Part shown: piece after piece, positions 19,252 to 36,031 of the stretch
How the letters are laid out: each line of letters opens with the position of its first letter
Numbering within the stretch: the stretch's first letter is position 1
Assembly (NCBI GenBank): GCA_012523055.1
Contig: JAAYJG010000168.1
Coordinates: 1 to 38,677, forward strand
Direction: 5' to 3'
Source of the DNA: Ruminiclostridium sp.
Lineage (GTDB): Bacteria; Bacillota; Clostridia; DSM-8532
DNA: 38,677 nucleotides
Made by a program: the position numbers and the translations under genes
Notes under the pieces: model-generated
What the model was told of the DNA's origin: nothing
Databases searched by the model: none
The model's input: only the letters and a program-made list of their open reading frames with translations

Positions 19252-19303
19252 AAAGACCATCTCCTTTCAGCAACAGACAATATCACAGCTTTTCGGAGAT
19301 AGC

Positions 19304-19404
19304 TATACATATTTCGATAAACGCACTTATAATTTGCAGTAATACGGATTTAAACTTTACAAATGCGTAAAATATGTTGTATAACGCACTTAAAATGATA
19401 TAAT
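19304..19404 (+). promoter_or_regulatory. two candidate promoters plus repeated operator-like boxes upstream of the HTH-hsd operon
   Basis: TATAAT lies at 19328-19333, and TGaTATAAT (extended -10) at 19396-19404. The box AACGCACTTA is repeated at 19320-19329 and 19383-19392, each overlapping or abutting a -10. A partial inverted copy, AAATGCGTA, lies at about 19360. Confidence 0.45.
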
Positions 19405-19662: not shown

Positions 19663-19683
19663 GCGTAAAGAGTGGAGATACAG

Positions 19684-21264
19684 ATGGCTAAGACAACAAA
19701 AGCACAAGAGCAATCGCTTGAATCAATAATGTGGAACTGCCGCAATGCCCTACGCGGGACTGTCGGAGGCAACGAAACAAACCGTGATGTCGTCATGGGT
19801 TTGGTGTTCTTGAAGTTCGCCGGCGACAAATTTGAAAAGCGCAGAGCAGAAATACAGGAAGAATACGGCGATGTCCCCGCTTTCCTGGAGAAGGCATCCT
19901 TCTACCTTTCCAAGAACGTATTTTACCTGAGCGAAACTTCACGCTGGTCTTATATTGTCAAAAACGCCAGCGCAAACGATATAGCGGTCATTATCGATAC
20001 CGCTATGAAAGACATAGAGGACGGCAACCCGACGCTCAAAGGAGCATTGCCGCAGAACCGATATACCACGCTGAGCGCAATTCGTCCGGAGCAGCTTAAA
20101 TCGCTGATTGACGAGGTCAACAAGATTGACGAGAAACGGTTTCATGAGAAAGATCTTATCGGGCGTGTGTACGAATACTTCCTGCAAGTGTTCGCCATTG
20201 ATTCCGGTACCGGCAATGAAAAGGGCGAATTCTACACGCCTGCGAGCATCGTTCAGCTTATCGCCGAAATCATAGAACCGTATTCAGGCGTTGTATATGA
20301 CCCGTGCTGCGGTTCAGCCGGTATGTTTGTTTCCTCGATTAAGTTTGTGGAGCGGCACAACGGCGACCGCTTGAAAGTTTCGGTAGTCGGGCAGGAGCGC
20401 ACACCCGAAACGTGGCGACTTGCAAAAATGAACCTCGCTATTCGCGGTATTTCGCATAACCTCGGAGACCGACCTGAATCAACATTCGCGGAAGATTTAC
20501 ATAGGGATAAAAAGGTTGACTTCATTATGGCTAATCCGCCATTCAATTTAAAGCTGAATGCGCAGGGTGTAACGCAGGACAAGTTAAACGGCGACCCGCG
20601 TTGGGATGGATATCCTGCCCCTCCAGTATCGAACGCCAATTATGCGTGGATTTTGCATATGCTCTCGAAACTGGATGTGACTAACGGCATTGCTGGTTTC
20701 CTGCTCGCTAACGGTGCATTGAATGCCGGAGGCGTAGAGGGCGATATCCGTAAGGAGCTTGTTGAAAATGATAAGGTGGAAGCGATTATCGTTCTGCCTC
20801 GCGAAATGTTTTATTCCACGGATATTTCCGTAACGCTCTGGATAATTAACAACAACAAGAAAGCCCGCAGCTTGAATGGGCGCCAGCTACGCGACCGACA
20901 GGGCGAAGTCCTCTTTATAGACCTGCGCCGTTGGAACGAGAATATCTATGAGAAAAAGTACGTCCAATTTTCAGACAAGCAGATAGCCGACGTTAAGAAG
21001 ATCTATGCCGATTGGCAGACAGGCAAAGGCTATACCAATATACCGGAACTATGCAAGTCTGCAACGAAGGCCGAAATCACCGCACAGAAGTATTCGCTTG
21101 CGCCGAGCAAGTACATTGAGTTTATCGACCATGACTTAGAAATTGACTACGCATCAGAGATGAAGCGGATTCAAGGCGAGCTGCGCGAGGTGCTTAAAGC
21201 TGAGAAGCAGTCACAGGCCATGCTCGAAGAAGCGTTCAGGGGGATTGGGTATGGGATTGAATAA
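19684..21264 (+). CDS. hsdM: type I restriction-modification system methyltransferase subunit
   Basis: It has an HsdM N-terminal domain (LWNCRNALRG-like, LVFLKF), the SAM motif VYDPCCGSAGMF and the catalytic N6-adenine motif IMANPPFN. Confidence 0.95.
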   Translation: MAKTTKAQEQSLESIMWNCRNALRGTVGGNETNRDVVMGLVFLKFAGDKFEKRRAEIQEEYGDVPAFLEKASFYLSKNVFYLSETSRWSYIVKNASANDIAVIIDTAMKDIEDGNPTLKGALPQNRYTTLSAIRPEQLKSLIDEVNKIDEKRFHEKDLIGRVYEYFLQVFAIDSGTGNEKGEFYTPASIVQLIAEIIEPYSGVVYDPCCGSAGMFVSSIKFVERHNGDRLKVSVVGQERTPETWRLAKMNLAIRGISHNLGDRPESTFAEDLHRDKKVDFIMANPPFNLKLNAQGVTQDKLNGDPRWDGYPAPPVSNANYAWILHMLSKLDVTNGIAGFLLANGALNAGGVEGDIRKELVENDKVEAIIVLPREMFYSTDISVTLWIINNNKKARSLNGRQLRDRQGEVLFIDLRRWNENIYEKKYVQFSDKQIADVKKIYADWQTGKGYTNIPELCKSATKAEITAQKYSLAPSKYIEFIDHDLEIDYASEMKRIQGELREVLKAEKQSQAMLEEAFRGIGYGIE

Positions 21265-22375
21265 GCAAAAACTTGGCAAATATATCGAACGTGTTGAACG
21301 CCGCAATTTAGATTTACTGTTTGGAATAGACGACGTTCGAGGCATCTCCAACGCAAAAGAAATACAATCCACCAAAGCGGATATCACTGACCGCTCGTTT
21401 AGTCGTTTCCAAATCGTTGAACCGCATGAGTTTGTGTTTAATAGGCGCACAACACGCATGGGTGAGAAACTTGGTCTTGGGTATAACAATATCGGTGAAA
21501 CATTTATTGTTACCGAAGATTACGTCGTCTTCCGAGTAATCGACGAATGTGTTTTACTGCCTGACTATCTGAATGTCTTTTTCCGTCGTCCGGAATTTGA
21601 CCGCTATGCCCGATGGGATTCATGGGGTAGTGCTACTGAGTTCTTTAACTGGGAAGAGATGTGTGATGTGCCAATTACCCTCCCGCCGCTCCCCGTTCAG
21701 CAAAAGTATGTGAACGTATACAATGCCATGCTCTCCAATCAGCGAGCTTATGAGAGTGGGCTGGAGGATTTGAACACAGCGATTGCTGCAAGTATTGAGG
21801 AGTTTAAACATACAGCACCCCGCGTGGCAGTTGGTCGGCTTCTTGAGGAAACCGATACCCGCAACCGAAACGGTGCAATTACCAACGTGCAAGGCATCAA
21901 CATCAATAAGGAGTTTATGCCGTCTGTGGCTAACCTCAGCACGACGGATTTAACGAAGTATAAGGTTATTTGTAAAGATCAGTTTGCAGCAAACTTTATG
22001 CACGTTATGCGTGATGAGAAGGTCCCATTGGGGCTTTATCATCACGATGAACCGTGTATTATATCCCCTGCATATCCTGTGTTTCGGATTATATCGGATG
22101 ATGTCTTACCTGAATACCTTATGCTATGGCTTAATCGTGCAGAAAGTGACCGTTATGCTTGGTTCATCAGCGATAGTAGCGTTCGCGGTGGGTTAGAAAT
22201 GAGTCGGTTCTATGAAATTTATGTTCCGTTGCCTTCCGTTGAGCAGCAACAAGCGGTTGTAAATTTTTACAACGCACGTCATTTGATCTTAAAAAACATA
22301 ACAATGCTGGGCAATATGCTAAAAGACATCTGCCCGATATTGATAAAAGGTTCGCTTGAGGAAGCGAGCGCATAA
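21251..22375 (+). CDS. hsdS: type I restriction-modification system specificity subunit
   Basis: The ATG at 21251 overlaps the hsdM stop by 14 nt. The two-TRD layout has conserved spacer helices (PLPPLPVQQKYVNVYNAM... and PLPSVEQQQAVVNFYNA...). Confidence 0.9.
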   Translation: MGLNKQKLGKYIERVERRNLDLLFGIDDVRGISNAKEIQSTKADITDRSFSRFQIVEPHEFVFNRRTTRMGEKLGLGYNNIGETFIVTEDYVVFRVIDECVLLPDYLNVFFRRPEFDRYARWDSWGSATEFFNWEEMCDVPITLPPLPVQQKYVNVYNAMLSNQRAYESGLEDLNTAIAASIEEFKHTAPRVAVGRLLEETDTRNRNGAITNVQGININKEFMPSVANLSTTDLTKYKVICKDQFAANFMHVMRDEKVPLGLYHHDEPCIISPAYPVFRIISDDVLPEYLMLWLNRAESDRYAWFISDSSVRGGLEMSRFYEIYVPLPSVEQQQAVVNFYNARHLILKNITMLGNMLKDICPILIKGSLEEASA

Positions 22376-22444
22376 AACTCGCAACACGTTGCGAGAAATT
22401 GAAAAATGCAGACTATGTCTGCACAATTTGAGGAGGTGCTGAGG

Positions 22445-23350
22445 ATGGCACTTTTTACCGAAAGCCACGGGATGAGAACTCCGGTTGAACGCACTTCGAC
22501 TATAACGGTCGAGATGTATTATTTACTTTTGGATTGTTGCAAAAAATATTATAAACACTTAACACATCTTTTTCCGCAACAATGTCATGATGATTTTACG
22601 GCAAAGGACTATTTGGCTTTTGGCGAAAAGCAGTTCCAAAATCGTCTTAAAGTGAAAATACCAACACTATTTCGTGATGAATATGGCAGAATCAGTTCAC
22701 CAGCGGATGGCGATGAATACGACCAATATGCATTGTTGGATTTAATAGAGTTTATAGCTCAAAATATGAAAGATATTTCAGAAGGCTGGAATAATCAGCG
22801 TTATCAAAATTACTGGAATATTGAATGTTTGAATACAGCAAACGTGTTTGACGATTACCAGCACGAAATTAATGAAATTTTTGTGGAGTCCGGATTATTG
22901 TTTACGTTAACATCTGCAAAAGTAGTTGAGCGGGTTCTTGAACATAGCACCCTAACGCCCGGAGTGGAAACTGCCGTTCAGTCCGTTAAGGAAAAAGGGC
23001 TAAAAGACTTACTGGAAGAAGCGGTTGCTCTCTTTAAGCAGCCCGACCCAGCGTTTCGAAATGATGCAGTTGAAAAGCTTTGGGATGCATTCGAGCGTTT
23101 GAAGACCTACTATACCACACTGGATAAGAAAGGGTCGGCGGCGAAAATCGTTACAGATATGAGCGGCGGACAGACGGAGTTCTCCAAACTGTTTGACGAT
23201 GAGTTCAAGGCGTTGACAACTATAGGCAATGGCTTCAGGATTCGCCATCATGAAACCGATAAAATCGATATAACAGACAGCAGACACTTCGACTATATAT
23301 TCAACCGCTGTATGTCGTTGATTGCCTCTGCACTTCAATATCTTAACTGA
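22445..23350 (+). CDS. hypothetical protein, AbiJ-NTD4/HEPN-like (tentative), nested in the hsd operon
   Basis: ATG 22445 follows GAGGAGG, whereas the track start 22406 has no RBS. The C-terminal third, DAVEKLWDAFERLKT...ALTTIGNGFRIRHHETDK...HFDYIFNRC, recalls AbiJ-type abortive-infection proteins. This is recognition by eye only. Confidence 0.45.
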   Translation: MALFTESHGMRTPVERTSTITVEMYYLLLDCCKKYYKHLTHLFPQQCHDDFTAKDYLAFGEKQFQNRLKVKIPTLFRDEYGRISSPADGDEYDQYALLDLIEFIAQNMKDISEGWNNQRYQNYWNIECLNTANVFDDYQHEINEIFVESGLLFTLTSAKVVERVLEHSTLTPGVETAVQSVKEKGLKDLLEEAVALFKQPDPAFRNDAVEKLWDAFERLKTYYTTLDKKGSAAKIVTDMSGGQTEFSKLFDDEFKALTTIGNGFRIRHHETDKIDITDSRHFDYIFNRCMSLIASALQYLN

Positions 23351-23363
23351 GGGAGGAACACTT

Positions 23364-24377
23364 ATGGGGGACAGCTTAATCCCGAACAACGCAAGTACTT
23401 TTGATGAGGTCATTGCCATCATTGACAATGCCCGCGAGAGTGCATTCCGTGCCGTTAATCGGGAACTTATCAATATGTACTGGGACATCGGTGAGTATGT
23501 GAGCCACCGTGTTACCAATGGCGGTTGGGGCAAGTCTGTTGTCAAGGAGTTTTCTGACTTTATACAGAGCCGCTATGTCGGTATAAAAGGCTTTTCCTCG
23601 TCAAACATTTGGCGAATGAAACAGTTTTATGAAACGTATCGCGGCAACGAAAAACTCGCAACACTGTTGCGAGAATTGACGTGGTCGCACAATCTTCAAA
23701 TAATGTCGTGCAAAACGGATGAGGAGCGGGAGTTTTATCTCACCCTATCGGTCAGGAACCGCTACTCTTTCCGTGAGTTGAAGCGGCAGATGGATAGCGG
23801 GTTGTATGAGCGAACTATGATGTCGGAAATCACCAACAAGCTGATAACCGAACGCAGCGAGGGTCTGACCGCTTTGCGTGACAGCTATATCCTTGAATTT
23901 TTGGACTTACCCGAAAGCCATAAGGAAAAAGACCTACGGAAAGCCATCGTTTTTAATCTGAAGGACTTCATCCTGGAGTTCGGCAAGGACTTCACTTTTG
24001 TCGGCGAGGAATACCGTGTTCAGGTAGGTAACCGCGACTTTTTTATTGATCTTCTGTTCTATAATCGCGAGCTTCACTGCCTTGTGGCGATAGAACTGAA
24101 AATCGGAGAGTTCGAGCCAGAACACCTCGGCAAGATGGAGTTCTACCTCGAGGCTCTTGACCGCGACATCAAAAAATCCGATGAAAATCCTAGCGTAGGG
24201 CTTATCCTCTGTACCAAGAAGGATGCAACGGTGGTCGAGTATGCACTCAGCCGCAGTATGTCGCCCGCCATGATTGCGGATTATAAACTGCACTTGCCGG
24301 ATAGGCACATTTTGGAAAATAAACTGCGTGAGTTGACGGAGCTTGCCGAAAGCACTGCTGATGAAGACGATGAATAA
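23364..24377 (+). CDS. PD-(D/E)xK nuclease family protein (DUF1016 / YhcG-like)
   Basis: ATG 23364 follows GAGGGAGG. It has the N-terminal pattern ARESAFRAVNRELINMYWDIGEYV, then LSWSHN-like TWSHNLQI, and the PD-(D/E)xK core FIDLLFYN...CLVAIELKIGEF. Confidence 0.85.
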   Translation: MGDSLIPNNASTFDEVIAIIDNARESAFRAVNRELINMYWDIGEYVSHRVTNGGWGKSVVKEFSDFIQSRYVGIKGFSSSNIWRMKQFYETYRGNEKLATLLRELTWSHNLQIMSCKTDEEREFYLTLSVRNRYSFRELKRQMDSGLYERTMMSEITNKLITERSEGLTALRDSYILEFLDLPESHKEKDLRKAIVFNLKDFILEFGKDFTFVGEEYRVQVGNRDFFIDLLFYNRELHCLVAIELKIGEFEPEHLGKMEFYLEALDRDIKKSDENPSVGLILCTKKDATVVEYALSRSMSPAMIADYKLHLPDRHILENKLRELTELAESTADEDDE

Positions 24378-24389
24378 AGGGGGATCGCC

Positions 24390-27300
24390 GTGGAATTGAA
24401 TTTTACAAGAGGAATGTTTACCGAAGCCGAACTTGAGGCGGCTATCATCGATTTATACCAAAAGCAGGACTACGATTATGTCCTCGGCGAGACAATTCAT
24501 CGTGGGTTTGAGGAGATACTGCTTAAGGAAGACCTGCGTTCCTATCTCTATGCCCATTATCCCGATCTTACGGTGGCTGAAACAGAAAAGGTCATAAGCC
24601 GTATCGAGAATATTCCCTCTGCGCCGCTGTATCAAGGCAATCGCGAGACCTTCCTTCTGACAAACGAAGGCTTTGATTTACAGCGCGACGATACCGCAAA
24701 ACTTGCCGTGCACATCAATTACATAGACTTTGACGAGCCTAAAAAGAACATTTTTAAGGTGGTCAACCAGTATTCGGTGCAGGGCGAGCGTCTGCGCAGA
24801 CCGGACTTGATTCTGTTCATCAACGGCATTCCCGTAGCGATTTTCGAGTTTAAGTCCGCCGTCAAGGAGAACACAACTATTCACGACGCCTGGGAGCAGA
24901 TAACCATCCGTTACTGTCGCGATATTCCCAAGCTGATGAAATATTGTTTTCTTTCTGTTATCAGCGATGGAGCCAACACCCGAATGGGCAGTATCTTTAC
25001 GCCATATGAATATTACTACGCATGGAACAAGATTAATGACGAAAAAAAAGTCAGCAACGGCATCACCGCCCTTCTCACTTTGATTAAGGGCGCATTTGAC
25101 AAAGACCGCGTTGTCGAAATCCTTCGTGACTTTGTCTACTACCCGGATGACAGCACTAAAGAAACGGCTATCGTCGCCCGCTATCCGCAGTTCTTTGCAG
25201 CACGGAAGATGTTTGAGAATATTAAAAAGCACATGAGACCCGAGGGTGACGGCAAGGGCGGTACATACTTCGGCGCAACCGGCTGTGGCAAAACCTATAC
25301 GATGCTGTTTCTCTCTCGTTTGCTCGCCTTACGCGACAGGGACGCCTTTGAAAACCCGACGATGGTCATCATCACCGACCGCGAGGATTTAGACAGGCAG
25401 ACCTCGGAACTGTTTGTATCTTCCAAACGCTATCTGCACGACAACAATGTGCGGAGCATTGAGAGTCGACACGACTTGCAGAAGGTATTAGGTGTCGAAA
25501 CATCTGACCTCCCGAAAGTGGCCGAGGAGCCCACATATTACAGCGTGACCGGTGCAGAAAGCGGGGGCGTGTTCCTGACAACAATTCAGAAGTTCTGCGA
25601 ATCGACGGGCTTGCTATCTAACCGCTCCAACATTATCTGTATTTCTGATGAAGCACATCGGACACAAACAGGCGTTGGCTCGAAGCTGAAAAAGACTGAC
25701 AAGGGCGTGTTCACTACATACGGCTTTGCCAAGTATCTCCGTGACAGCTTCCCGCGAGCGATCTACTGCGGGTTCACCGGGACGCCAATTGACGAAACAA
25801 TTGCCGTGTTCGGTGATATCGTGGACAGCTACACAATGATAGAATCAAGCGATGACGGCATCACCGTCCGCATAGCTTACGAGCCGCGCCTGGCGAGGGT
25901 TATCCTCTCAGATGAACAGGCACGGGAAATACAGAAATATTACGATAAATGCACCGAGGAAGGCTCCAATCCTGAACAGGTTGAGGAGAGCAAGCGCGCA
26001 ATGAGTGAGATGAAGCGCGTTCTCGGTCATCCTGAGCGCATGAAGAAATTGGCTATGGACATTGTTACCCATTATGAGGCGTTGACCGCGCAGAAGCCTG
26101 AAATTGTACAGAAGGCGATGATTGTATGCGCCGACAGGACGCTTGCTTATCGTTTGCTGAAAGAAATAATAGCGCTACGCCCTGATTGGAACAAACCGCG
26201 CAGATCCGAAAACGATGCCGCTCTATCAAAGTCGCAGTTGGAGAAACTTATGCCGCTTGAGAAAATCAAGCTCGTGGCGACTCAAGGTGACAACGACGAA
26301 AAGGAGCTTTACGACCTCTGCGGCACAAAGGACTACCGGCAGATGCTCGACAGGCAGTTTAAGAATAACAACTCTAACTTCAAGATTGCCATCGTAGTCG
26401 ATATGTGGATTACGGGTTTTGACGTACCGTCCCTGGCGGTTATGTACATAGACAAGCCATTGCAGAAACATACGTTGATTCAGACAATTTCCCGTGTTAA
26501 CCGTGTTTTTGATGGCAAAGATATGGGCTTGGTGGTGGACTACATAGGCATCAAGCAGGATATGCTCGAAGCCCTAAAGAAATACAGCAGCCCGCAGGAA
26601 AGTCCTGTTGATGAAATTTCGGTTGCACTGGCAGTTTTCCGCAATCATCTGGCTCTGCTTGATGAACTGCTTCACGACTTCGACGCTACAAAATTCTACT
26701 CCGGTGAACCGTTGGAGCGTCTACTCTGCTTGGACGCCGCCGCAGAATATGTGCAGATTAGCAAAGAGATGGAAAGCCGCTTTATGAGCCTCTCCCGCAA
26801 AATGAAAGCGGCGTATGACATTTGCTTCCCGTCTGGAGAATTGACTGAAACGGAAACAGCAAAGGCTCAGTTCTACCTTGCCATCCGATCTATCATTTAT
26901 AAGCAGACAAAAGGCGATGCACCCGACGCCGAAGTGATGAACCGCGTTGTCGAGAAGATGGTACAGGACGCTATCACTTGCACGGGCATTGAAAACATCG
27001 TCAACGCAGGCAAGCCGGAAGACCTGTTCAGTGAAGAGTTTATGAAACAGCTGGACGAAGTCAATCTGCCGATTTCTAAGTTTAACGCCCTCTTGAAGCT
27101 GCTCCGCAAAGCGGTATCCGGTTACGGCAATGTCAATAAGGTTAAAGCGATTGAGTTTGACAAGCGGCTGAAGGCCGTTGTTGACAACTATAACAACCGC
27201 GACAAGCTGGTATTCACGAGTGAAGTCGTTGCCGATTTTATCAACGGGCTATCGGAGGAGTTGATAAAAATTTTCTCCGACCTCCAGACTGACAGGACCT

Positions 27301-27605
27301 CTTTCGAAGCACTGGGCATTACCTATGAAGAAAAGGCGTTTTATGACATTCTCGTCAAAGTACGAGACGATCACGGTTTCCCATATGCCGATGAGAAGTG
27401 CCTTATGCTTGCGAAAGAAATAAAAATACTGGTGGACGACAAAGCGCAGTTCGCCGACTGGTCTACCCGCGCTGACATTAAAAACCAGTTAAATATGGAT
27501 TTGACCGTGCTGCTCTATAAAAACGGTTACCCGCCCGAATGGGACGAGGAAGTGTTTGAGAAGGTTCTGGAACAGGCGGAGAATTTTAAGAAGTACGCTG
27601 ATTAA
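24390..27605 (+). CDS. hsdR: type I restriction endonuclease subunit R
   Basis: A GTG start follows AAGGGGG. It has an N-terminal PD-(D/E)xK (RPDLILFINGIPVAIFEFKS), SF2 motor motif I GATGCGKTYTM, DEAH (ISDEAHRTQ) and the C-terminal helical domain typical of HsdR. Confidence 0.95.
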   Translation: MELNFTRGMFTEAELEAAIIDLYQKQDYDYVLGETIHRGFEEILLKEDLRSYLYAHYPDLTVAETEKVISRIENIPSAPLYQGNRETFLLTNEGFDLQRDDTAKLAVHINYIDFDEPKKNIFKVVNQYSVQGERLRRPDLILFINGIPVAIFEFKSAVKENTTIHDAWEQITIRYCRDIPKLMKYCFLSVISDGANTRMGSIFTPYEYYYAWNKINDEKKVSNGITALLTLIKGAFDKDRVVEILRDFVYYPDDSTKETAIVARYPQFFAARKMFENIKKHMRPEGDGKGGTYFGATGCGKTYTMLFLSRLLALRDRDAFENPTMVIITDREDLDRQTSELFVSSKRYLHDNNVRSIESRHDLQKVLGVETSDLPKVAEEPTYYSVTGAESGGVFLTTIQKFCESTGLLSNRSNIICISDEAHRTQTGVGSKLKKTDKGVFTTYGFAKYLRDSFPRAIYCGFTGTPIDETIAVFGDIVDSYTMIESSDDGITVRIAYEPRLARVILSDEQAREIQKYYDKCTEEGSNPEQVEESKRAMSEMKRVLGHPERMKKLAMDIVTHYEALTAQKPEIVQKAMIVCADRTLAYRLLKEIIALRPDWNKPRRSENDAALSKSQLEKLMPLEKIKLVATQGDNDEKELYDLCGTKDYRQMLDRQFKNNNSNFKIAIVVDMWITGFDVPSLAVMYIDKPLQKHTLIQTISRVNRVFDGKDMGLVVDYIGIKQDMLEALKKYSSPQESPVDEISVALAVFRNHLALLDELLHDFDATKFYSGEPLERLLCLDAAAEYVQISKEMESRFMSLSRKMKAAYDICFPSGELTETETAKAQFYLAIRSIIYKQTKGDAPDAEVMNRVVEKMVQDAITCTGIENIVNAGKPEDLFSEEFMKQLDEVNLPISKFNALLKLLRKAVSGYGNVNKVKAIEFDKRLKAVVDNYNNRDKLVFTSEVVADFINGLSEELIKIFSDLQTDRTSFEALGITYEEKAFYDILVKVRDDHGFPYADEKCLMLAKEIKILVDDKAQFADWSTRADIKNQLNMDLTVLLYKNGYPPEWDEEVFEKVLEQAENFKKYAD

Positions 27606-27620: not shown

Positions 27621-27647
27621 ACTTTTTAGGGGTGATGATGAGATATG
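27621..27647 (+). repeat. direct repeat copy 1 (ACTTTTTAGGGGTGATGATGAGATATG)
   Basis: It is identical, apart from one extra T, to 30291-30316. It contains an RBS-like AGGGGTGA and an ATG. Here that ATG opens only a 15-codon uORF (27645-27692). Confidence 0.9.
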
Positions 27648-27678: not shown

Positions 27679-30279
27679 ATGGCGAAGTTTGATTTTGGCT
27701 CCGAGATTCTGTGTGTAGACTTTCATCTACATACACGGCGTGATAAGGAATTTGCGTACGCTGGTGAAGAAAACAGCTTCGTCGGAGACTTTGTCGATGC
27801 GTTAAAGCAAAAAGGAGTCAGCGTCGGCGTGATTACGAATCACAACAAGTTCGATTCCGGCGAATACAAAGCCCTTCGTAAAAAGGCAAAGCAGGGTGAT
27901 ATATTCCTCTTGCCCGGCGTGGAGCTTTCCATCAAGGAAGGAAGTAATGGGCTGCATACGCTCATCGTGTTCAATCCCGATGAATGGATCAACAACGGTG
28001 ATGACTCTATCAACAGCTTTATCACTGCCGCCTTTCAAGGTATCCCGAATCATGAAAACGCCAACACCCGTTGCTTATACGACGTTCGCACAGCGCTTGA
28101 AACACTGGAGCGTTATGGCAAGGACTACTTCGTTGTATTCGCCCATGTAGAACAGGACAATGGGCTTATCAAAGAATGCGGCGGCGGCTTAATTCAATCA
28201 CTCGCTCAAATTGAGTTATTCCAGGAGCGCGTGCTAGGCGTTCAAAAACTCCGCACACTCGACAATATCCCGAAGTTGCAACAGTGGCTTGGTTACGACA
28301 TAGCTCGTGTCGAAGGATCTGACCCTAAGCGGATTGAGGATATCGGCAAGGACTGCTGCCAGACATACATAAAACTGGGCGAATATTCGTTTGATGCATT
28401 GAAGTACGCCCTTATCGACCATGAAAATAGGGTGTTTGACAACTGCGAGCACCTACGGCACAGCTACATAGAGTCCATCAGCTTCACGGGCGGCAAGCTC
28501 AATGACGTCGTGCTGAACTTGTCGCCCCAGCTTAATACTCTGATCGGGATTCGGGGAAGTGGAAAATCTTCAATTCTTGAAGTTTTGCGCTGGGTACTGG
28601 GTATAGACGCTTCGGCAGACAAACAGTACAAAAACAGACTTGTCGAATTTGTTTTGGGATCGGGCGGCAAAGCTGCTGTGCGCGCCGTTGACCAGCACGG
28701 TCGAAAATATGATATTTCAAAGATTAACGGTGACCGCGCATATATTACCGACGCGGCTGCTGGCGGCGATGTTACCGCTTCAGTTGGCTCACTGATCAAA
28801 AATCCCCTATATTTCGGCCAGAAAGATTTGGCGCGTTCAGACACGGAAGAAAACTACGAGAAGAAGTTGCTGGACAAGCTACTCGGCGGTAGAATCCCTG
28901 CCGCCGACTTGGGACAAGTGGAAACCCAGCTTACGGAAGCCATAAAGAACCTACTGGATGTCACGCAGATTCCTGAAAAAATCAAGGAGCTTGAGCTACA
29001 GAACGCTGACCTTGACCACAAGCTCAAAATTTTCGTGGATAAGGGCATCACTCAGAAGTTAGAGAAACAGACTGAATTCGGCGCAGATAAAGCCAAGCTC
29101 GAAGGCGCAATCGGAATTATCCAAGCTATCCATACAAGGTTGGTTGCATTTACACAATCAGCCGCACTCGAGGATGCCTTACTTGCCTCGTATACCTCGA
29201 AATATAACCCAGAATTGTTCACAAGGGCGCAAGCTGTCATCGAACGCATTGCCGAAATTCTCCAGAAGATTTCCGACCTCTCAACAGCGTTGAGTACTGA
29301 AAAAGACGCGCTCATTGGGATACAAACAGAGCTGACACAGCTTATCGAAGGGCTAAAAGACGAGTTTTCCCAAATCCAGCGTGAAATCAATGACGACACC
29401 CTTGACCTCAAGGGTTATCTGAAATACACGCAAGATAGAGCAAAAAATGTTGTGGAAATCGAACGGTTCAAACGCGAAGCGACGTCGACAGATGCAATCA
29501 AAACACGAATCCTCGGTCTCGCCCGCCAGCGCAACGAAGCTCTGATGGCAGTTTTCCGCGCATACGAAGCGGAAATCAACAGGTTGAACGAAAGGCAAGA
29601 TGCCTTGGCAATAAGTATCACTTTCAAAGGCAATACCGAAGCCCTATTACAGTTGGTTAGGAGAACATTCCAAGGGACAGCTATCCGTAGCGCAGAAACC
29701 AAGTCTGAGCAGATATGTGCTGCGCTGCCAGATGGCGTTGCCGTCCTGATGGATATTCTCCTTGATAACGGTAATAAGTTAACAAAAATCCTTGTGGATG
29801 CAGAGTACACGAAGTTCATAGAAAAAGTGCTGAGTGACTACGCATCATTCATCAGATGTTGGAGTGGAGACCGTATCGATATTCTTTACCATAGCAAGCC
29901 TCTGCGCGAGCATTCTCTTGGACAGCGAGCGTCCGCTTTGGCACTGACCATCCTCACTCAAGACGACAGTGACATCATTATCATAGATCAGCCGGAAGAC
30001 GATCTGGACAATCAGGTGGTTTACCGAGAATTCATCAAGACAGTGAAAGCCAAGAAGCCGAGCGTCCAGTTTATCTTTGCCACGCACAACCCTAACATTC
30101 CTGTTCTCGGTGATGCGGAGCGAGTAATTGCGACGTTATATACCGAACAATCAATTACGCCAACCGTGGGCAACATCGACAATGCCGAATCTCACAAACT
30201 CATTGTTGACATTATGGAGGGCGGACAGGAAGCATTCAAACGTAGGAATGATATCTATAAAGCTTGGCACAAACAGTAG
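27679..30279 (+). CDS. PHP-phosphoesterase domain fused to SMC/RecF-class ABC ATPase with coiled-coil insertion (candidate single-gene defence protein)
   Basis: ATG 27679 follows AGGGGG. The PHP ligand pattern is DFHLHT, ITNHN, GVELS, GLHTL and FAHVE. Walker A is GIRGSGKSS. A heptad-rich segment of about 250 aa follows. Then come LGQRASALAL, Walker B IIIIDQPEDDLD and ATHNPNIP. Confidence 0.8.
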   Translation: MAKFDFGSEILCVDFHLHTRRDKEFAYAGEENSFVGDFVDALKQKGVSVGVITNHNKFDSGEYKALRKKAKQGDIFLLPGVELSIKEGSNGLHTLIVFNPDEWINNGDDSINSFITAAFQGIPNHENANTRCLYDVRTALETLERYGKDYFVVFAHVEQDNGLIKECGGGLIQSLAQIELFQERVLGVQKLRTLDNIPKLQQWLGYDIARVEGSDPKRIEDIGKDCCQTYIKLGEYSFDALKYALIDHENRVFDNCEHLRHSYIESISFTGGKLNDVVLNLSPQLNTLIGIRGSGKSSILEVLRWVLGIDASADKQYKNRLVEFVLGSGGKAAVRAVDQHGRKYDISKINGDRAYITDAAAGGDVTASVGSLIKNPLYFGQKDLARSDTEENYEKKLLDKLLGGRIPAADLGQVETQLTEAIKNLLDVTQIPEKIKELELQNADLDHKLKIFVDKGITQKLEKQTEFGADKAKLEGAIGIIQAIHTRLVAFTQSAALEDALLASYTSKYNPELFTRAQAVIERIAEILQKISDLSTALSTEKDALIGIQTELTQLIEGLKDEFSQIQREINDDTLDLKGYLKYTQDRAKNVVEIERFKREATSTDAIKTRILGLARQRNEALMAVFRAYEAEINRLNERQDALAISITFKGNTEALLQLVRRTFQGTAIRSAETKSEQICAALPDGVAVLMDILLDNGNKLTKILVDAEYTKFIEKVLSDYASFIRCWSGDRIDILYHSKPLREHSLGQRASALALTILTQDDSDIIIIDQPEDDLDNQVVYREFIKTVKAKKPSVQFIFATHNPNIPVLGDAERVIATLYTEQSITPTVGNIDNAESHKLIVDIMEGGQEAFKRRNDIYKAWHKQ

Positions 30280-30290
30280 AAAATGACATA

Positions 30291-30316
30291 ACTTTTAGGG
30301 GTGATGATGAGATATG
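30291..30316 (+). repeat. direct repeat copy 2 (ACTTTTAGGGGTGATGATGAGATATG)
   Basis: See copy 1. Here the terminal ATG is the start codon of the KAP NTPase gene. Confidence 0.9.
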
Positions 30317-32212
30317 TGGAACGACGTAGAAACAACGCAAGATTTTCTTAACTTTTCCGTAATTGCAAAAACAGTTGCTGAGTTGATTTCTGAATCAGGT
30401 GGACAACCTATCTCCATAGGCGTTTCAGGCAGTTGGGGAGCAGGAAAATCGTCTATGGTAAAAATGATTGGTGAAGCGCTTAAGCTCAAAGACGATGGTA
30501 AGGAAGACAAAGAAAAAAACTATGTTTTCTTAGAGTTTAATGCTTGGCTTTATCAAGGCTATGATGATGCTAGAGCAGCCTTATTACAGGCTGTTTCAGA
30601 TAAGCTCCTTGAAGAAAGTAAAAAGCGTTGTAATCCAGCAAATGATCTCACCAATAAGGTGAAGGGCTTTATTAAGCGGATCAACTGGCTTCAAGTGGCA
30701 AAGCTTGTTGTTCCATTATCGTTGGGACTGATTCCGGGTGGTGTTGCCGTCGGAGGACTAGCTTCCCTGATAGGTGCTGTTTCCAACCTTGCTCAAAATA
30801 AAGACACAGAAGCGCAGACCGAAAAAAGCGAAGCGGTTAGTGAGGCATTTGATGCCCTCGGACCTGAAATGAAGGAACTGCTGAAAGATAATGCGTCAAA
30901 ATCTACCCCTCAGCAGATAGAGAAACTCAGAGCCGATTTTGCTGATCTTCTTAAAGAATTGAACATCACATTGGTCATCTTGGTGGATGATTTAGACCGT
31001 TGTTTACCTTCAACGGCCATCTCCACCCTTGAAGCAATGCGACTTCTCCTTTTTGTTGAGAGGACAGCGTTCATTATCGCCGCAGATGAGCAAATGATTC
31101 GCAACAGTGTAAGAGCGCATTTTGCAAATGTTGAGTTGTCAGAAGGACTTGTGACAAGCTATTTTGACAAGTTAATTCAAATTCCCCTGTCTGTTCCACA
31201 TTTAGGCGTTGCAGAAGTCAAGATATACTTGGTGATGTTGTTTGCAGAACTATCACAAAGAAAAGGTGAGATAAATAAAGATATTTGGGAGAAGGCCAAG
31301 GCGGATTTATTATCCCTGTTATCCAGTGCTTGGCAGGGCGGCATACCCAAAGCGAAGATTGAAAAGGTTTTCGATGATTCTTCCGCGGAAAAGGTACGGA
31401 AATACATAGATTTAGCAGAGCAGCTTGCCGGGATTATGGTTACCGCAGACCATATAAATGGGAATCCTCGCCTCATCAAGCGGTTCTTGAATAATTTGAT
31501 AATAAGAGAAAAAGTAGCTCGCCTAAATGGTATGACAATTGACTTCGGAGGACTTGTCAAGATGCAACTGTTTGAGCGCTGTGCTTCTCCTGCGGCGTTT
31601 GAAGACCTCGTGAAAAAATCGGTCGAATCACAAGACGGAAAATTAATTTTTCTTCAGGAAATAGAAGCGAAAGTAGCCAGCGGAGAGGATTATGACACGG
31701 AAGATTCAAACTGGAAGTCACCATTTATTAAAGAATGGCTAAAACTTGAACCGAAGCTTGGCGATGCTGATATCAGACCTTTGCTGTATTTGAGTCGAGA
31801 CAGGTCTTTATCACTGGCTGCATATGATGAGCTCTCAAAAGAAGCGATTGAAATTTTATCTGCCTTGGCTGCTGTAGATAAAGACATAATCAAAGCTCTT
31901 GTGGATAAAATCAAAGAAATTGGTGAAATGGAAGCCGAAAGGTTGTTAGTCAGACTCGGGCGAATAGGTAGCGGCAGTCAATGGGAAAAGAAAACTCTTA
32001 TTGCTACATTGCATATCACCGAAGCTTATCCCAACTTAGGTAGTAGGCTTGTTAATTTACTAGATACTATCCCGGCGAAGACACGGAAAGTAGCTTTTAT
32101 TCCGCTACTGCTTGATAAACCGTGGGCATCGGAAATGTTGACCAGATGGAACAACGATATTAATACACCTCAGGTAGTAAAAAACGCCATAAATGCGAAA
32201 GGAGGAAAATAA
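30314..32212 (+). CDS. KAP family P-loop NTPase (QatA-like)
   Basis: Walker A is GVSGSWGAGKSS. It has the KAP hallmark FLEFNAWLYQGYDD, a hydrophobic insertion inside the NTPase domain (VAKLVVPLSLGLIPGGVAVGGLASLIGAV) and Walker B LVILVDDLDRCLP. Confidence 0.85.
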   Translation: MWNDVETTQDFLNFSVIAKTVAELISESGGQPISIGVSGSWGAGKSSMVKMIGEALKLKDDGKEDKEKNYVFLEFNAWLYQGYDDARAALLQAVSDKLLEESKKRCNPANDLTNKVKGFIKRINWLQVAKLVVPLSLGLIPGGVAVGGLASLIGAVSNLAQNKDTEAQTEKSEAVSEAFDALGPEMKELLKDNASKSTPQQIEKLRADFADLLKELNITLVILVDDLDRCLPSTAISTLEAMRLLLFVERTAFIIAADEQMIRNSVRAHFANVELSEGLVTSYFDKLIQIPLSVPHLGVAEVKIYLVMLFAELSQRKGEINKDIWEKAKADLLSLLSSAWQGGIPKAKIEKVFDDSSAEKVRKYIDLAEQLAGIMVTADHINGNPRLIKRFLNNLIIREKVARLNGMTIDFGGLVKMQLFERCASPAAFEDLVKKSVESQDGKLIFLQEIEAKVASGEDYDTEDSNWKSPFIKEWLKLEPKLGDADIRPLLYLSRDRSLSLAAYDELSKEAIEILSALAAVDKDIIKALVDKIKEIGEMEAERLLVRLGRIGSGSQWEKKTLIATLHITEAYPNLGSRLVNLLDTIPAKTRKVAFIPLLLDKPWASEMLTRWNNDINTPQVVKNAINAKGGK

Positions 32213-32216
32213 ATCT

Positions 32217-33029
32217 ATGGGAACATCTGCATCACATAACGGGCCAAAGTCTGGCGTTTCATTTGACCCCCCGTGGTTAGATGATATTGATAATCCAGAT
32301 GTACCTGCAGACCCTACGCAAAATCCTCAGCCAGCACCTGTATTGCCGCCACTTGCACCCCCTGCACGATTTAAGAGTGCACGCCGCAGCATGGGCGATT
32401 ACATAAGGAGCGGTAGCCGAGAGTCTTTGGCAAAATCCCTTGGACATTATTCGCGTACTGGTATGGGAGGCGCACGAAATGTAGCGAACCATATGCGCCA
32501 TTCCGCGAGTATTGCATCAAAACTGTATTCCTCATTTAGCTCACTTCGAGAGGGTAATGAACCTACAATAAGCAGTATTATCAGTAATTACAGGGCAGCA
32601 AATGCTGATATATATGGGCTGATTGACGCAATTGCAGAGTATATTTGCGCAGACGGAGGAAGTTTAGATGAAACATCTCCAAAAGATTCTGTTTCTTCGG
32701 CATTAAGCGACCTGTTTGACAAAAGTCCTGATGTTGATATTACTAATCTTTCAGATGATAGTGTCTGGTCATTAGTTTCATCGTTCCTCGGTTACGAAGC
32801 TTTCAGCAGAGTTCAACTTTACATCGGTCAAGGGTTTGAAACAAATGATGTTTCTCTTACCGACCGCATAACGAGACTTAACGATATGCGCGAGTATTTG
32901 GAGTCTGAGATTAGTTCTCAGATAGGAGTTATCCGTAATGAAATAGGAGACAAGCCGCCGTCAGACCTGCAAAAAGTTATGATGACTGCAATAGAAAGGA
33001 CTTTCAAAGTATTCGAGGTGACAGTATGA
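32217..33029 (+). CDS. hypothetical protein (QatB-position), Gly2 N-terminus and Pro-rich linker
   Basis: ATG 32217 has AAAGGAGG 8 nt upstream and lies 4 nt after the KAP gene stop. The product starts MGTSASHNGPKSG..., then a Pro-rich tract NPQPAPVLPPLAPPARF and a helical C-terminal domain. Its stop overlaps the next start (ATGA). Confidence 0.7.
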   Translation: MGTSASHNGPKSGVSFDPPWLDDIDNPDVPADPTQNPQPAPVLPPLAPPARFKSARRSMGDYIRSGSRESLAKSLGHYSRTGMGGARNVANHMRHSASIASKLYSSFSSLREGNEPTISSIISNYRAANADIYGLIDAIAEYICADGGSLDETSPKDSVSSALSDLFDKSPDVDITNLSDDSVWSLVSSFLGYEAFSRVQLYIGQGFETNDVSLTDRITRLNDMREYLESEISSQIGVIRNEIGDKPPSDLQKVMMTAIERTFKVFEVTV

Positions 33030-34291
33030 AAAAAATAATATGTTATCCGCACTCCTCGGTTCCAACTCATTTTGACGATGATATTGACTACTTTGAACTA
33101 TTTTCGCACTCAAATGTCTCTCGTTCGAATATCAGCTCATTAGGGCTTTCACTACCTCGCGAGCTAAGAAGGTATCGTATTGTACCTCCCATTTCGGCGA
33201 TTGATTTTGCTGCATTTGCAATTTCCATCGTCGCTGCTGACAAGTTAGTTTCGAGATCTGACAGCCCAGATGGATGGACAAGAATGATAGACTTAACTAT
33301 ATTTCTGTCCGAACCAGAAAAATGGAAGCCAATAAAAATAACAATTGAGAAAATGCTTAAATTTCTCACAGGGGATTTTTGGACGCTGTCTTTCCAATTA
33401 GCAGAAGCACCAGCGATTCAGCCCAGATATGAACCGCTTAAACGCGAGAATGATTGTGTTTGCCTTCTTTCAGGGGGCGTGGACAGCTTGGCTGGCGCAA
33501 TAGACTTGTTATCTGAAAAGCGAAGTCCTTTGTTTGTGTCACAGATTATCACAGGGGATGGAGAACGACAGCGTAATTTTGCTAACCGTTTTGGTGAGCA
33601 TAACCACTGCCAATGGAGTATTGGAAAACTCAGAGGAACAGAGGGATCAACTCGTGCTCGTTCCATTGCATTTTTCGCTTTTGCTCTCTTGGCGTCTTCC
33701 GCAATTTCGACATCAGGCAATATTGCAGAAATTGTTGTGCCAGAAAACGGGTTTATCAGCTTGAATGTGCCATTAGATTCTAATCGAATTGGGAGCTTAA
33801 GCACAAAGACTACACATCCTGTTTATATGACATTGCTTCAAGAAATTTGGGATGCACTTGGGATAAATGCAAAACTTATTTTGCCTTATAAATTTAAGAC
33901 TAAGGGTGAGGTTCTTAAGGAATGTAAAGATAGGCAACTGTTAGAAGAATTGGTTTTTGCATCGAATAGTTGTGGTAAATTTAGGCGTCATGGACTGAGG
34001 CATTGCGGAGTATGCGTGCCTTGTCTTGTGAGAAGAGCGGCCTTTTTAGAAGCAGGACTTCAAGACACCACGGAAAAGGGCTATCGATATGAGGACATCA
34101 GTAAGTCCAACTCAAAGGATTTGGCTGCCGTTGCATTAGCCGCTAAACAGGTTGAGCTTTCAGGTATAAATAGATTTATTAAGGGGAACTTGTCTTTTGC
34201 CAATCCTGATGACAGAAATTCTTATTTAGAAGTGGTTTTGCGCGGTATCAATGAACTTGAAAATCTAATGAGAGGCTATAAAATATTATGA
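33026..34291 (+). CDS. QueC-like PP-loop ATPase with about 145-aa N-terminal extension (QatC-like)
   Basis: The PP-loop CLLSGGVDSLAG lies at about aa 147-158. A C-terminal Cys cluster, SCGKFRRHGLRHCGVCVPCLVRRAAF, resembles the QueC zinc site. ATGA overlaps link it to both neighbours. Confidence 0.8.
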   Translation: MKKIICYPHSSVPTHFDDDIDYFELFSHSNVSRSNISSLGLSLPRELRRYRIVPPISAIDFAAFAISIVAADKLVSRSDSPDGWTRMIDLTIFLSEPEKWKPIKITIEKMLKFLTGDFWTLSFQLAEAPAIQPRYEPLKRENDCVCLLSGGVDSLAGAIDLLSEKRSPLFVSQIITGDGERQRNFANRFGEHNHCQWSIGKLRGTEGSTRARSIAFFAFALLASSAISTSGNIAEIVVPENGFISLNVPLDSNRIGSLSTKTTHPVYMTLLQEIWDALGINAKLILPYKFKTKGEVLKECKDRQLLEELVFASNSCGKFRRHGLRHCGVCVPCLVRRAAFLEAGLQDTTEKGYRYEDISKSNSKDLAAVALAAKQVELSGINRFIKGNLSFANPDDRNSYLEVVLRGINELENLMRGYKIL

Positions 34292-35019
34292 TAGACCTGC
34301 ACTGCCACCTTGATTTATATAAAGACCCGCTTTCATTACTCCCCGAAGTCAAAAGACGTTGTAAATATGTGCTTGCAGTTACCACCAGTCCACGCGCTTG
34401 GCAAAAGACAAAGCAAGTATTTGCAGGAATTGACTGCGTTCAGGTAGCACTTGGTCTGCACCCAGAAGTCCTTTTATCAAAAATGAATGAAATTGATATG
34501 TTGTTGTCAAACATCAGCCACTGCAAATATATTGGCGAGGTTGGAATAGATGGGTCGGATCAATACAAGTCGTCTTATCATGCACAAAAGGATTTTTTCA
34601 GGGAAGTTGCTCGAGCTACTGAAAATAACGGTGGTAAAATAATAAGCATACATTCAAGAAATGCAGTGAAAGATGTTCTGGATATTATCGAAAGTGATAT
34701 CGTGACCAGCAAACCAGTTTTGCACTGGTTCTCCGGAACTATCGAAGAACTTGAACGAGCAGTTTCTTTGGGTTGCTGGTTTAGCGTTAATCCTGCAATG
34801 CTCACTGGGAAAAAGGGTAGAAGTCTCGTTTCAAAAATGCCGCTTTCAAAAATACTGCCCGAGACTGATGCTCCATTTACAGAAAAACGGGGAATTCCTT
34901 ATAAGCCTTGGGAAGCCATTGAAATAGTCGATACACTTAAAGTTATTTTCGGTGTCGAAACTGAGACATTAAGGAATAAAATGTTTTCAAACCTTGAAGC
35001 GCTAATAGGTCAAAGTTAA
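34288..35019 (+). CDS. TatD family metal-dependent hydrolase/DNase (QatD-like)
   Basis: TatD metal-ligand pattern: MIDLHCHLD, GEVGIDG, ISIHSR, LHWFSG and PETDAPF. Confidence 0.85.
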   Translation: MIDLHCHLDLYKDPLSLLPEVKRRCKYVLAVTTSPRAWQKTKQVFAGIDCVQVALGLHPEVLLSKMNEIDMLLSNISHCKYIGEVGIDGSDQYKSSYHAQKDFFREVARATENNGGKIISIHSRNAVKDVLDIIESDIVTSKPVLHWFSGTIEELERAVSLGCWFSVNPAMLTGKKGRSLVSKMPLSKILPETDAPFTEKRGIPYKPWEAIEIVDTLKVIFGVETETLRNKMFSNLEALIGQS

Positions 35020-35203: not shown

Positions 35204-36031
35204 TTACAATGGCACATCCTGCCATATATTGTCTAAGAGAATTCTTTGATGGGTGTAGCCAAGGGATTTCAACTTTTCGACAGCCTGGAGATAATATGCG
35301 TCGATCTTATCGGGGTGGTGCGCATCAGAATTTAGTACCAGGGGAATGTTTCGTTCCCGCATACAGGCTAAAATCCAATCAGACGGGTACATTTCAGAGG
35401 TATACCCCCGGGCAATCCCTCCGGTGTTTACCTCGACAATAACTTGTTGCTCCGTAATCGCGTCCAGGACTCCTTCAACAGCCTTTCGGTACCAGCTTTC
35501 GCTTTCGTTAAAGAAACGATTGCCACTATTGTTTTTTTTCAGAATGTCCAGGTGTCCCAGAATAGAGGGGGCCTGCTGATAGAGCATATCAGTCAGAAGC
35601 TGATAATACTTCTCAACCAGTTCCCGTGCCTCACCGTGAAAAACTACATCTCTGGTTTCCTGGAACTCCTCCGGGGTGCCATCCAAAGCCATATACCTTT
35701 GCCCTGCGGCGTGATAAATGAAATGCACAGAACCTATGGTGTAATCAAGGCCTGGATAACCGCGGTAATCCACTACGCCGGGGTAAAAGTCGGTTTCAAG
35801 GCCAACATAGACCTGTATCTGACCACGGTACTTTTCTTTCAGACCAAGAACCGTCTGCATGTATTGCTTAAGTTTGCCAGGTTTCATTGTCCAGCAGGTT
35901 TCAAAATGAACAGGCGCATGGCTTGAAATCCCGATAGCGGGAAATTTTTTGCGGATGGCGGAAAGAATATAGTCCTCCGGTGCCATACTCCCATCACAAA
36001 AATGGCTGTGGGTATGATATGTTGTAAACAT
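35204..36031 (-). CDS. hisJ: histidinol-phosphatase, PHP family (HisJ/HisK type)
   Basis: 275-aa ORF with GGAGA upstream. It has the N-terminal motif YHTHSHFCDGS, plus SSHAP, GLETD, GSVH and NSDAHHP, typical of HisJ-family PHP phosphatases. Confidence 0.8.
   Translation of the reverse strand: MFTTYHTHSHFCDGSMAPEDYILSAIRKKFPAIGISSHAPVHFETCWTMKPGKLKQYMQTVLGLKEKYRGQIQVYVGLETDFYPGVVDYRGYPGLDYTIGSVHFIYHAAGQRYMALDGTPEEFQETRDVVFHGEARELVEKYYQLLTDMLYQQAPSILGHLDILKKNNSGNRFFNESESWYRKAVEGVLDAITEQQVIVEVNTGGIARGYTSEMYPSDWILACMRERNIPLVLNSDAHHPDKIDAYYLQAVEKLKSLGYTHQRILLDNIWQDVPL

Follow-up and report, generated by a model that had tools for sequence, protein, structure and literature searches.

The closest described relatives of the gene considered here are Ppl and TrlF. 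Ppl, a single-gene anti-phage system of Escherichia coli described by Gao et al. in 2020, is an experimentally validated defense that is countered by gp130 of phage Bas63 (PMC11482910). The passage on Ppl in a 2026 review (PMC12904381) describes it as a 3'-5' exonuclease on single-stranded DNA that is inactive while nucleoside triphosphates (NTPs) occupy its PHP and NTPase domains and that is switched on by nucleotide depletion together with 3'-OH ends from phage homing endonucleases. TrlF was named from the temperature-restriction locus (TRL operon, trlR-trlF-trlG) of Photorhabdus laumondii, in which strains that lose trlG or the whole operon can grow at 36°C and mutations in trlF did not turn up (PMC7554251). 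Zhang et al. (NAR 2025; PMC12255303) described RptR, a small repressor encoded upstream of type I restriction-modification (R-M) systems in Gammaproteobacteria, along with a pair given as "RNA-binding protein + AAA-like ATPase" whose function they called unknown; their supplementary tables name the ATPase of this pair "TrlF family AAA-like ATPase" (PMC12255303). The association of TrlF with R-M has thus been noticed before, only in Gammaproteobacteria and without interpretation. Here we analyze a trlF-family gene in a stretch of 38,677 nt from a Ruminiclostridium sp. assembly (GCA_012523055.1, contig JAAYJG010000168.1; hereafter the window), where it lies between type I R-M genes and a QatABCD operon.

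The gene encodes a PHP-type metal nuclease domain and an SMC/Rad50-like ATPase on one chain and is an ordinary member of a named, partly characterized family with hundreds of representative clusters. In the reading we prefer, with a probability of roughly 0.6, its product is a TrlF/Ppl-family enzyme that serves as an anti-phage or anti-mobile-DNA effector working like Ppl, is expressed with an R-M array headed by a helix-turn-helix (HTH) gene, acts without TrlG, and takes no part in Qat.

Placement in the TrlF/Ppl family

The window protein matched the NCBIfam model NF045780 ("TrlF family AAA-like ATPase") at 484.7 bits against a cutoff of 350, with residues 13-861 aligned to positions 8-944 of the 944-position profile. 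On the same model a Gammaproteobacterial TrlF scored 594.7 bits and E. coli Ppl 474.5 bits, and since Ppl itself passes, the TrlF model is an umbrella that contains Ppl. The Ppl equivalog NF042955 separates the two, with the window protein failing at 164.3 bits (cutoff 1000) and genuine Ppl reaching 1326.7. The PADLOC Ppl model (PDLC02208) matched the window protein in two partial stretches (E=4.2e-33, 112.5 bits), which denotes homology and not orthology. Aligned directly, Ppl from the E. coli plasmid pEC14III and the window TrlF are collinear, with 24% identity over residues 7-333 (E=5e-16) and 32% over residues 725-856 (E=2e-15). By these sequence comparisons the window protein is a member of a non-Ppl branch of one TrlF/Ppl family and not a Ppl ortholog. 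An apt annotation would accordingly be TrlF-family, in place of Ppl or "DNA repair ATPase."

The two proteins share their layout, in which a PHP domain is followed by a Walker A half-head, a coiled coil, and a signature/Walker B half-head (895 aa in Ppl, 866 in the window protein), with an identical DQPEDDLD motif. They differ in that identity reaches only 24-32% in the alignable parts and that PHP motif V reads D-x-H in Ppl and D-x-K in TrlF. Their settings also differ: on pEC14III, ppl is a solitary gene beside pifA/pifC-like genes with no TrlG partner, whereas the window trlF stands at the end of an R-M operon. The earlier note on this DNA, made without database searches, had raised Ppl as a candidate family of essentially uncharacterized mechanism. 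The relationship holds, as both proteins pass the TrlF model, and orthology does not; as for the mechanism, the review passage cited above (PMC12904381) describes an NTP-inhibited exonuclease.

Compared with the Photorhabdus TRL operon, the window locus has a gene of the same NCBIfam family, and the small HTH_26 gene that heads its array may correspond to the regulator gene of that operon, but its TrlF is ~38% identical to the Gammaproteobacterial type, trlG is missing, and a whole type I R-M system separates the regulator from trlF.

A PHP domain and a split SMC-like head on one chain

The trlF open reading frame (ORF) begins at the ATG at 27679 and ends with a stop codon at 30277-30279. The longest mechanical ORF opens two codons earlier, at a GTG (27673); homolog N termini match the position of MAKFDFGSE, which places the start at the ATG, and a Shine-Dalgarno sequence (AGGGGGTG) lies 8 nt 5' of it. 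The motifs that the earlier note had listed for this ORF are all there, in the order and spacing it gave, and its proposal of a PHP domain and a coiled-coil SMC/ABC ATPase on one chain was borne out by the profile and structure searches described below.

Sequence profiles did not detect the PHP domain: the Pfam PHP model gave no match to the protein at E<1, and nothing meaningful came from searching PDB sequences by profile with the N-terminal domain as the query. A structure model of residues 1-265 (predicted local distance difference test [pLDDT] score, 91.4) was more informative, as the 31 best Foldseek matches against the PDB (E<=1e-4) were all PHP-fold proteins, which confirms the fold. 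The top matches were 3e38 (BVU_3505), PsfC, endonuclease Q (EndoQ; TM score, 0.63), RNase AM, and the PHP domains of Pol III alpha and PolC. The domain (barrel, residues 1-260) carries the motifs DFHLHT (14-19), ITNHN (52-56), GVELS (80-84), GLHTL (91-95), and FAHVE (154-158), and the predicted metal ligands H16, H18, D22, H55, E82, H93, H156, and D215 fill 8 of the 9 canonical positions. We scored conservation in 82 homologs with 36-100% identity to the window TrlF; two of the scored motifs, DQPEDDLD being one of them, were also the search patterns used to gather the genome loci. H16, H18, D22, H55, E82, and H156 are invariant in this set, and H93 and D215 are present in 81 of the 82. Motif V is D-x-K and not D-x-H, with a lysine (GSDPK) replacing the usual last histidine in 76 of the 82 homologs; the corresponding motif of Ppl is GSDAH.

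The remainder of the protein forms an ABC head split by a coiled coil, with the motifs GIRGSGKSS (290-298), LGQRASALAL (747-756), IIIIDQPEDDLD (766-777), and ATHNPNIP (801-808). Pfam AAA_21, SMC_N (spanning residues 275-824), and AAA_15 scored above their cutoffs, and AAA_23 fell just under (26.5 versus 27). Of the profile matches that the earlier note had anticipated, those to SMC_N and AAA_15 and a partial one to the PADLOC Ppl model were thus obtained, and those to Pfam PHP and AAA_23 were not. The NCBIfam SMC model scored 22.8 bits against a cutoff of 567. An AlphaFold2 (AF2) model of the full-length protein, built with 44 homologs as input (mean pLDDT, 86.5), together with the N-terminal domain model, confirmed the PHP barrel and split head that the note had expected. 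The best PDB matches of the full-length model in Foldseek were the heads of Smc, MukB, JetC, condensin/cohesin, Rad50, RecF, RecN, and Lamassu LmuB; this search was dominated by SMC heads and is uninformative on the PHP domain. K296 (Walker A), Q381 (Q-loop), S746, G748, and Q749 (signature), D770-Q771-P772-E773, and H803 (H-loop) are invariant in the 82 homologs. The coiled coil that splits the head comprises ~230 residues in two arms of ~110 residues each (AF2 helices 412-494 and 511-639). No CxxC zinc hook occurs at its apex, with no cysteine near residues 495-510, and there is no hinge domain. A PDB sequence search found no solved structure of Ppl or TrlF.

The Walker B motif departs from the usual form. 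In HMMER alignments to PDB chains, D770-Q771 falls opposite the "DQ" of the engineered, hydrolysis-dead Smc3(EQ) chain 6zz6_B, where wild-type 4ux3 has "DE." Because Q771 aligns with the engineered residue, we take TrlF to carry by nature a glutamine where the catalytic glutamate would stand. Exchanging the glutamate after the Walker B aspartate for glutamine is the experimental route to hydrolysis-dead "EQ" mutants of SMC and Rad50 proteins. The same Asp-Gln pair (DQPEDDLD) is common to the TrlF homologs and E. coli Ppl.

The combination of parts invites comparison with two groups of proteins. OLD/Gabija GajA, PARIS AriA-AriB, Septu PtuA, and Lamassu LmuB are, like TrlF, ABC ATPases of defense (AAA_15/AAA_21/SMC_N class) that work with a nuclease effector, and TrlF gave weak PADLOC matches to AriA, PtuA, GajA, and LmuB that were limited to the P-loop and signature segments. 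The effectors of this group are TOPRIM, HNH, or Cap4 domains, whereas that of TrlF is a PHP domain. SbcCD/Mre11-Rad50 likewise joins an SMC-like ABC ATPase and an antiparallel coiled coil to a metal-dependent phosphoesterase nuclease, which there acts on DNA ends, and in both sequence and structure searches Rad50 heads rank with the best matches of TrlF. TrlF differs from it in being a single chain with a PHP-fold nuclease in place of a calcineurin-like one, a short coiled coil without a CxxC hook, and a natural D-Q Walker B.

A patchy and mobile distribution

Relatives of TrlF at E<=1e-30 made up 459 representative clusters (50% identity) among 1.84 billion representatives, and at least 587 stretches in a collection of species-representative genomes, from many phyla, encode one. 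The family occurs on plasmids, integrative elements, and defense islands, flanked by relaxases and recombinases, with some loci beside Gabija, BREX, or R-M. We found it in 370 plasmid records, 278 of them conjugative, and in 2 of 50,697 phage records, both unannotated Listeria records of ~19-20 kb. No synteny of trlF with core genes was seen in any locus examined.

This distribution bears on whether TrlF is a housekeeping DNA-repair enzyme, a single-chain analog of SbcCD/Mre11-Rad50. The Rad50-like layout of ATPase, coiled coil, and metallo-nuclease and the Foldseek matches to Rad50, RecN, and RecF would fit such a role, and the homolog in Desulfitobacterium hafniense is annotated as a "DNA repair ATPase." A patchy gene with relaxase and recombinase flanks and no core-gene synteny is hard to reconcile with housekeeping, however, and the window copy itself lies inside an element bounded by a serine recombinase. 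We therefore rejected this explanation as very unlikely.

A trlG-less clade at the 3' end of R-M and BREX modules

ORFs were called in 80 genome loci and in contigs carrying close homologs. In 54 of the 80 genome loci, whose homologs have 36-41% identity to the window TrlF, trlG lies directly 3' of trlF with gaps of -28 to +9 nt; it encodes a protein of ~385-396 aa with SLFN_AlbA_2 (Schlafen) and HATPase_c_4 domains. The window TrlF and all homologs of at least ~42% identity come without trlG, and because they form a single clade in a neighbor-joining tree, we interpret this as a stable loss and not as the product of assembly gaps. BLASTP revealed no TrlG-like ORF in the window trlF locus, where the gene downstream of trlF is qatA (KAP NTPase).

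The frequency of trlG raises the prospect that TrlF is half of a toxic or abortive TrlF-TrlG module and relies, in the window, on a TrlG-like protein from another part of the genome. That the Photorhabdus phenotype maps to trlG (PMC7554251) agrees with this, and two loci of the window's own clade (L018 and L024) carry a TrlG-like gene elsewhere in the operon. The stable loss in a single clade speaks for independence instead, Ppl likewise has no TrlG partner, and no SLFN_AlbA_2 or HATPase_c_4 match was found among the window proteins scanned, which did not include every ORF. On balance we consider dependence on a distant partner improbable.

In 15 of the 21 distinct loci of this clade, trlF is the last gene of an operon and is immediately preceded, on the same strand, by an R-M or BREX module; one locus has a type I R-M system directly downstream, and five have no recognizable R-M. 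The upstream modules are of eight different kinds: type I R-M (the window), type ISP with two C5 methylases and Vsr (D. hafniense, TrlF identity of 76%), MmeI-type IIG with an Eco57I-like methylase (relatives at 78-79% identity), an EcoRI-methylase/C5-methylase cassette with two unknown genes (290 and 167 aa; Campylobacter ureolyticus, Streptococcus suis, Veillonella, and others), Eco47II, XhoI, a C5 methylase with an unknown gene, and BREX PglZ-BrxL. Gaps between the R-M genes and trlF in these relatives are mostly below 30 nt or are overlaps, and several of the operons open with a 70- to 80-aa HTH gene homologous to the one that heads the window array. In the trlG-containing loci, too, the families seen most often upstream are methyltransferase, HsdR, MmeI, and type III genes. 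Solitary trlF genes without recognizable adjacent R-M occur on E. coli IncF and Listeria plasmids, for which the gene tables are incomplete, and in loci L023 and L103.

What the analysis adds to the known family is therefore a testable genomic pattern, a trlG-less branch about three-quarters of whose loci are tied on the same strand to R-M or BREX, almost always at the 3' end of the module and often behind an HTH regulator. The pattern suggests more than mere clustering in defense islands, with trlF coexpressed with R-M and perhaps using restriction-generated ends.

Taken further, the same pattern could mean that TrlF serves the upstream R-M system as an obligate accessory and lacks a defense activity of its own, loading on restriction-made ends to destroy the fragments or block their repair. 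The 15 of 21 loci with eight kinds of module, the single locus with R-M downstream, and the short gaps would all be expected, as would the close match of trlF to hsdM and hsdR in GC content at third codon positions (GC3). The requirement of Ppl for 3'-OH ends made by another nuclease, as the review passage has it (PMC12904381), and the TrlF/TrlG pairs inside RptR-controlled type I R-M loci of Gammaproteobacteria also agree with an accessory role. The solitary trlF genes noted above do not, with the caveat on the plasmid gene tables, and neither does the function of Ppl as a single gene; together, solitary plasmid copies and Ppl autonomy argue that TrlF can work alone. BREX neighbors, which are not known to cut DNA, also misfit a strict model of restriction-made ends. 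We find an obligate accessory role doubtful.

The RptR loci parallel the order of genes in the window, in which a small repressor gene precedes type I R-M and TrlF comes last. There the TrlF-containing pair either follows rptR directly or lies between hsdS and hsdR, whereas in the window TrlF alone follows hsdR. The regulators are also different, RptR having a novel four-helix fold (PDB 9R2Z) and the window protein being a Cro/C1-type HTH_26. We rejected the idea that the latter is an RptR, as it matches 3tyr, a classical HTH_26, and not the RptR fold. Small upstream proteins from two Gammaproteobacterial loci gave no RptR match.

Some loci of the clade contain further genes. A pair of unknown proteins (~290 and 167 aa; no Pfam or PADLOC match) is always encoded between the EcoRI-methylase/C5-methylase gene and trlF, at L003:8598-9963, L007:6436-7804, L008:6594-7971, L017:8592-9960, and L104:7603-8968 (Campylobacter, Streptococcus, Veillonella, and related contigs), and may represent the restriction subunit(s) of that cassette or partners of TrlF. 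The TrlG-like genes of L018 (3653-5188) and L024 (3719-5188) are longer than trlG (490-512 aa), carry SLFN_AlbA_2 and HATPase_c_4, are 26-27% identical to TrlG, and lie upstream of BREX pglZ-brxL-trlF. In the closest relative from the genome collection, a metagenome-assembled genome of Eubacteriales with 74% TrlF identity, a 147-aa ORF (L014:4523-4966) has a 4-nt overlap with the trlF stop and precedes a 155-aa ORF; neither has a counterpart in the window.

A Ppl-like mechanism and what weighs against it

The best-supported mechanism, drawn from homology to Ppl at 24-32% identity, would run as follows. trlF would be expressed in the co-directional array headed by the HTH gene, just 3' of the type I R-M genes; gene order suggests this cotranscription. 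The NTPase head would bind nucleotide and turn it over slowly, if at all, since glutamine naturally takes the place of the catalytic glutamate after the Walker B aspartate, and in the nucleotide-bound state the head would hold the PHP domain, a presumed 3'-5' exonuclease, in an inactive form. During infection, nucleotide depletion together with free DNA 3' ends would switch on the exonuclease, and DNA would be degraded. As a member of the trlG-less branch, TrlF would do this without a Schlafen-like TrlG partner.

Several points weigh against this reading. To our knowledge, Ppl is the only member of the TrlF family for which defense has been tested. Identity between TrlF and Ppl is low and the last PHP histidine of Ppl is lysine in TrlF, so that metal stoichiometry and substrate could differ between the two. 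PHP-fold matches include an endonuclease (EndoQ), a 5'-3' exoribonuclease (RNase AM), and phosphatases, and with activities so varied the fold does not fix the substrate. Residue E773 could stand in as the catalytic base, and the picture of a hydrolysis-poor head is read from the motif. The Ppl mechanism is itself taken from a single statement in the review (PMC12904381), and the only genetics on a TrlF locus, that of Photorhabdus, maps the phenotype to trlG with no trlF mutations (PMC7554251).

A more speculative extension, which we put forward as a tentative possibility, is that the trlG-less clade constitutes a dedicated second stage of restriction. A conserved frame of a 5'-terminal HTH gene and a 3'-terminal trlF would hold interchangeable R-M or BREX cassettes, and TrlF, as a nucleotide-gated PHP exonuclease whose SMC-like head is hydrolysis-poor by nature, would be licensed by DNA ends or stalled complexes that the coexpressed R-M system produces on unmodified DNA; a 24-nt repeat that brackets trlF in the window (see below) could then be a scar of cassette shuffling. 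Under such an arrangement one restriction cut would lead to irreversible destruction of the invader and provide a backup when phages inhibit RecBCD/AddAB. If TrlF is a restriction-coupled end-processing nuclease, this would explain why TrlF/TrlG pairs are found with RptR-controlled type I R-M, and TrlF would be a first case in which an SMC-like NTPase of natural "EQ" form gates, through its nucleotide state, a nuclease that acts after restriction.

Genomic context in the window

The features of the window are collected in Table 1. trlF begins 73 nt after hsdR and ends 34 nt before qatA, exactly the distances the earlier note had given when it described a defense context, and the type I R-M system and QatABCD on either side support that description. 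About 8 kb separate the HTH_26 gene from trlF, with the R-M system between them. No terminator-like site was found between hsdR and trlF or between trlF and qatA.

Table 1. Features of the trlF locus and its surroundings in the window
Feature	Position	Strand	Evidence or remark
trlF-family gene, 866 aa	27679..30279	+	ORF and translation; NCBIfam NF045780; AF2 model
PHP metallo-phosphoesterase domain, aa 1-264	27679..28470	+	Domain model, Foldseek, residue conservation
N-terminal half of ABC head, aa 265-410	28471..28908	+	Walker A GIRGSGKSS 28546-28572, Q-loop Q381; Pfam SMC_N, AAA_15, AAA_23; aligns with SMC3/Smc/Rad50 N-lobe
Antiparallel coiled-coil insertion, aa 411-640	28909..29598	+	AF2 helices; Foldseek matches to SMC heads with coiled coil
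Alpha/beta insert and C-terminal half of ABC head, aa 641-866	29599..30279	+	Signature S746-x-G-Q, Walker B IIIIDQPEDDLD 29974-30009, H-loop H803; Pfam AAA_21 over 724-807
24-nt exact direct repeat TTTTAGGGGTGATGATGAGATATG, copy 1	27624..27647	+	31 nt upstream of trlF start
24-nt exact direct repeat TTTTAGGGGTGATGATGAGATATG, copy 2	30293..30316	+	Contains qatA ribosome-binding site and start codon
Small Cro/C1-type HTH_26 regulator gene, 78 aa	19426..19662	+	ORF; PDB 3tyr_A match E=2e-21; first gene of co-directional array
Type I R-M module	19672..27605	+	Pfam, NCBIfam
hsdM	19672-21264	+	
hsdS	21245-22375	+	
AbiJ_NTD4 protein	22406-23350	+	PADLOC candidate PDC-S32 (E=6e-139); between hsdS and hsdR
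DUF1016/YhcG PDDEXK nuclease	23322-24377	+	PADLOC candidate PDC-S02 (E=4e-126); between hsdS and hsdR
hsdR	24390-27605	+	
qatA (KAP NTPase)	30314-32212	+	PADLOC QatA models E=2e-124
Large serine recombinase with DUF4368	11389-13125	-	Left part of island
AAA_25 protein	15116-16186	-	Left part of island
DUF6076	16382-17467		Left part of island
DUF6550	18541-19260	-	Left part of island
HisJ-family histidinol phosphatase, PHP-domain protein	35204-36031	-	TIGR01856 155.8 bits, cutoff 90; 185 nt beyond qatD

Downstream of trlF the window contains a complete QatABCD of four genes. Besides acting alone, the earlier note had allowed for TrlF as a fifth component of this operon, an idea that the shared strand, the 34-nt gap, the lack of a terminator-like site before qatA, and the 24-nt repeat linking the regions upstream of trlF and qatA would suit. 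Yet trlF and Qat are neighbors only in contigs from the window's own organism, whose source community is an anaerobic digester, and Qat was absent next to trlF in all other loci examined; defense genes, to which the note had looked, do lie beside trlF in homolog loci (R-M/BREX, Gabija), and cooccurrence with Qat in other organisms was not found. Composition points the same way, as GC3 is 0.54-0.60 in hsdM, hsdR, and trlF (trlF, 0.54, with overall GC matching too) and drops to 0.34-0.39 in qatA and qatC, a sharp break at the trlF/qatA junction within 27679-35019 which indicates that the Qat operon was acquired separately and placed behind the R-M-trlF unit. QatABCD is, moreover, already complete with its four genes. 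A fifth Qat component is thus rejected on cooccurrence and composition and is essentially excluded. On the NCBIfam QatA equivalog, which has a cutoff of 600 bits, QatA itself reached 438, and we therefore regard the window Qat as a divergent variant.

The two copies of the 24-nt repeat bracket trlF, and 0 such matches are expected by chance. The ATG at the end of copy 1 (27645) starts no more than an out-of-frame ORF of 15 codons. The repeat may be a scar of module insertion or joining, or else a duplicated translation-initiation region, and recombination between its copies would delete trlF precisely. A search of public metagenomes turned up no trlF-less hsdR-qatA junction; the 30-mer was absent, and the 20-mer core occurred only in two unrelated contigs as a generic ribosome-binding site plus ATG.

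We note that the PDC-S32 and PDC-S02 genes occupy the same hotspot inside type I R-M in which DarTG2 or TrlFG sit in Gammaproteobacteria. The R-M/trlF/Qat array as a whole looks like part of an integrated mobile element, the left part of which spans 11389-19342. Housekeeping leuS and a URO-D gene lie further left, and hisJ and an acyl-CoA ligase gene lie on the right. HisJ, although it too has a PHP domain, is an ordinary housekeeping enzyme unrelated to trlF.

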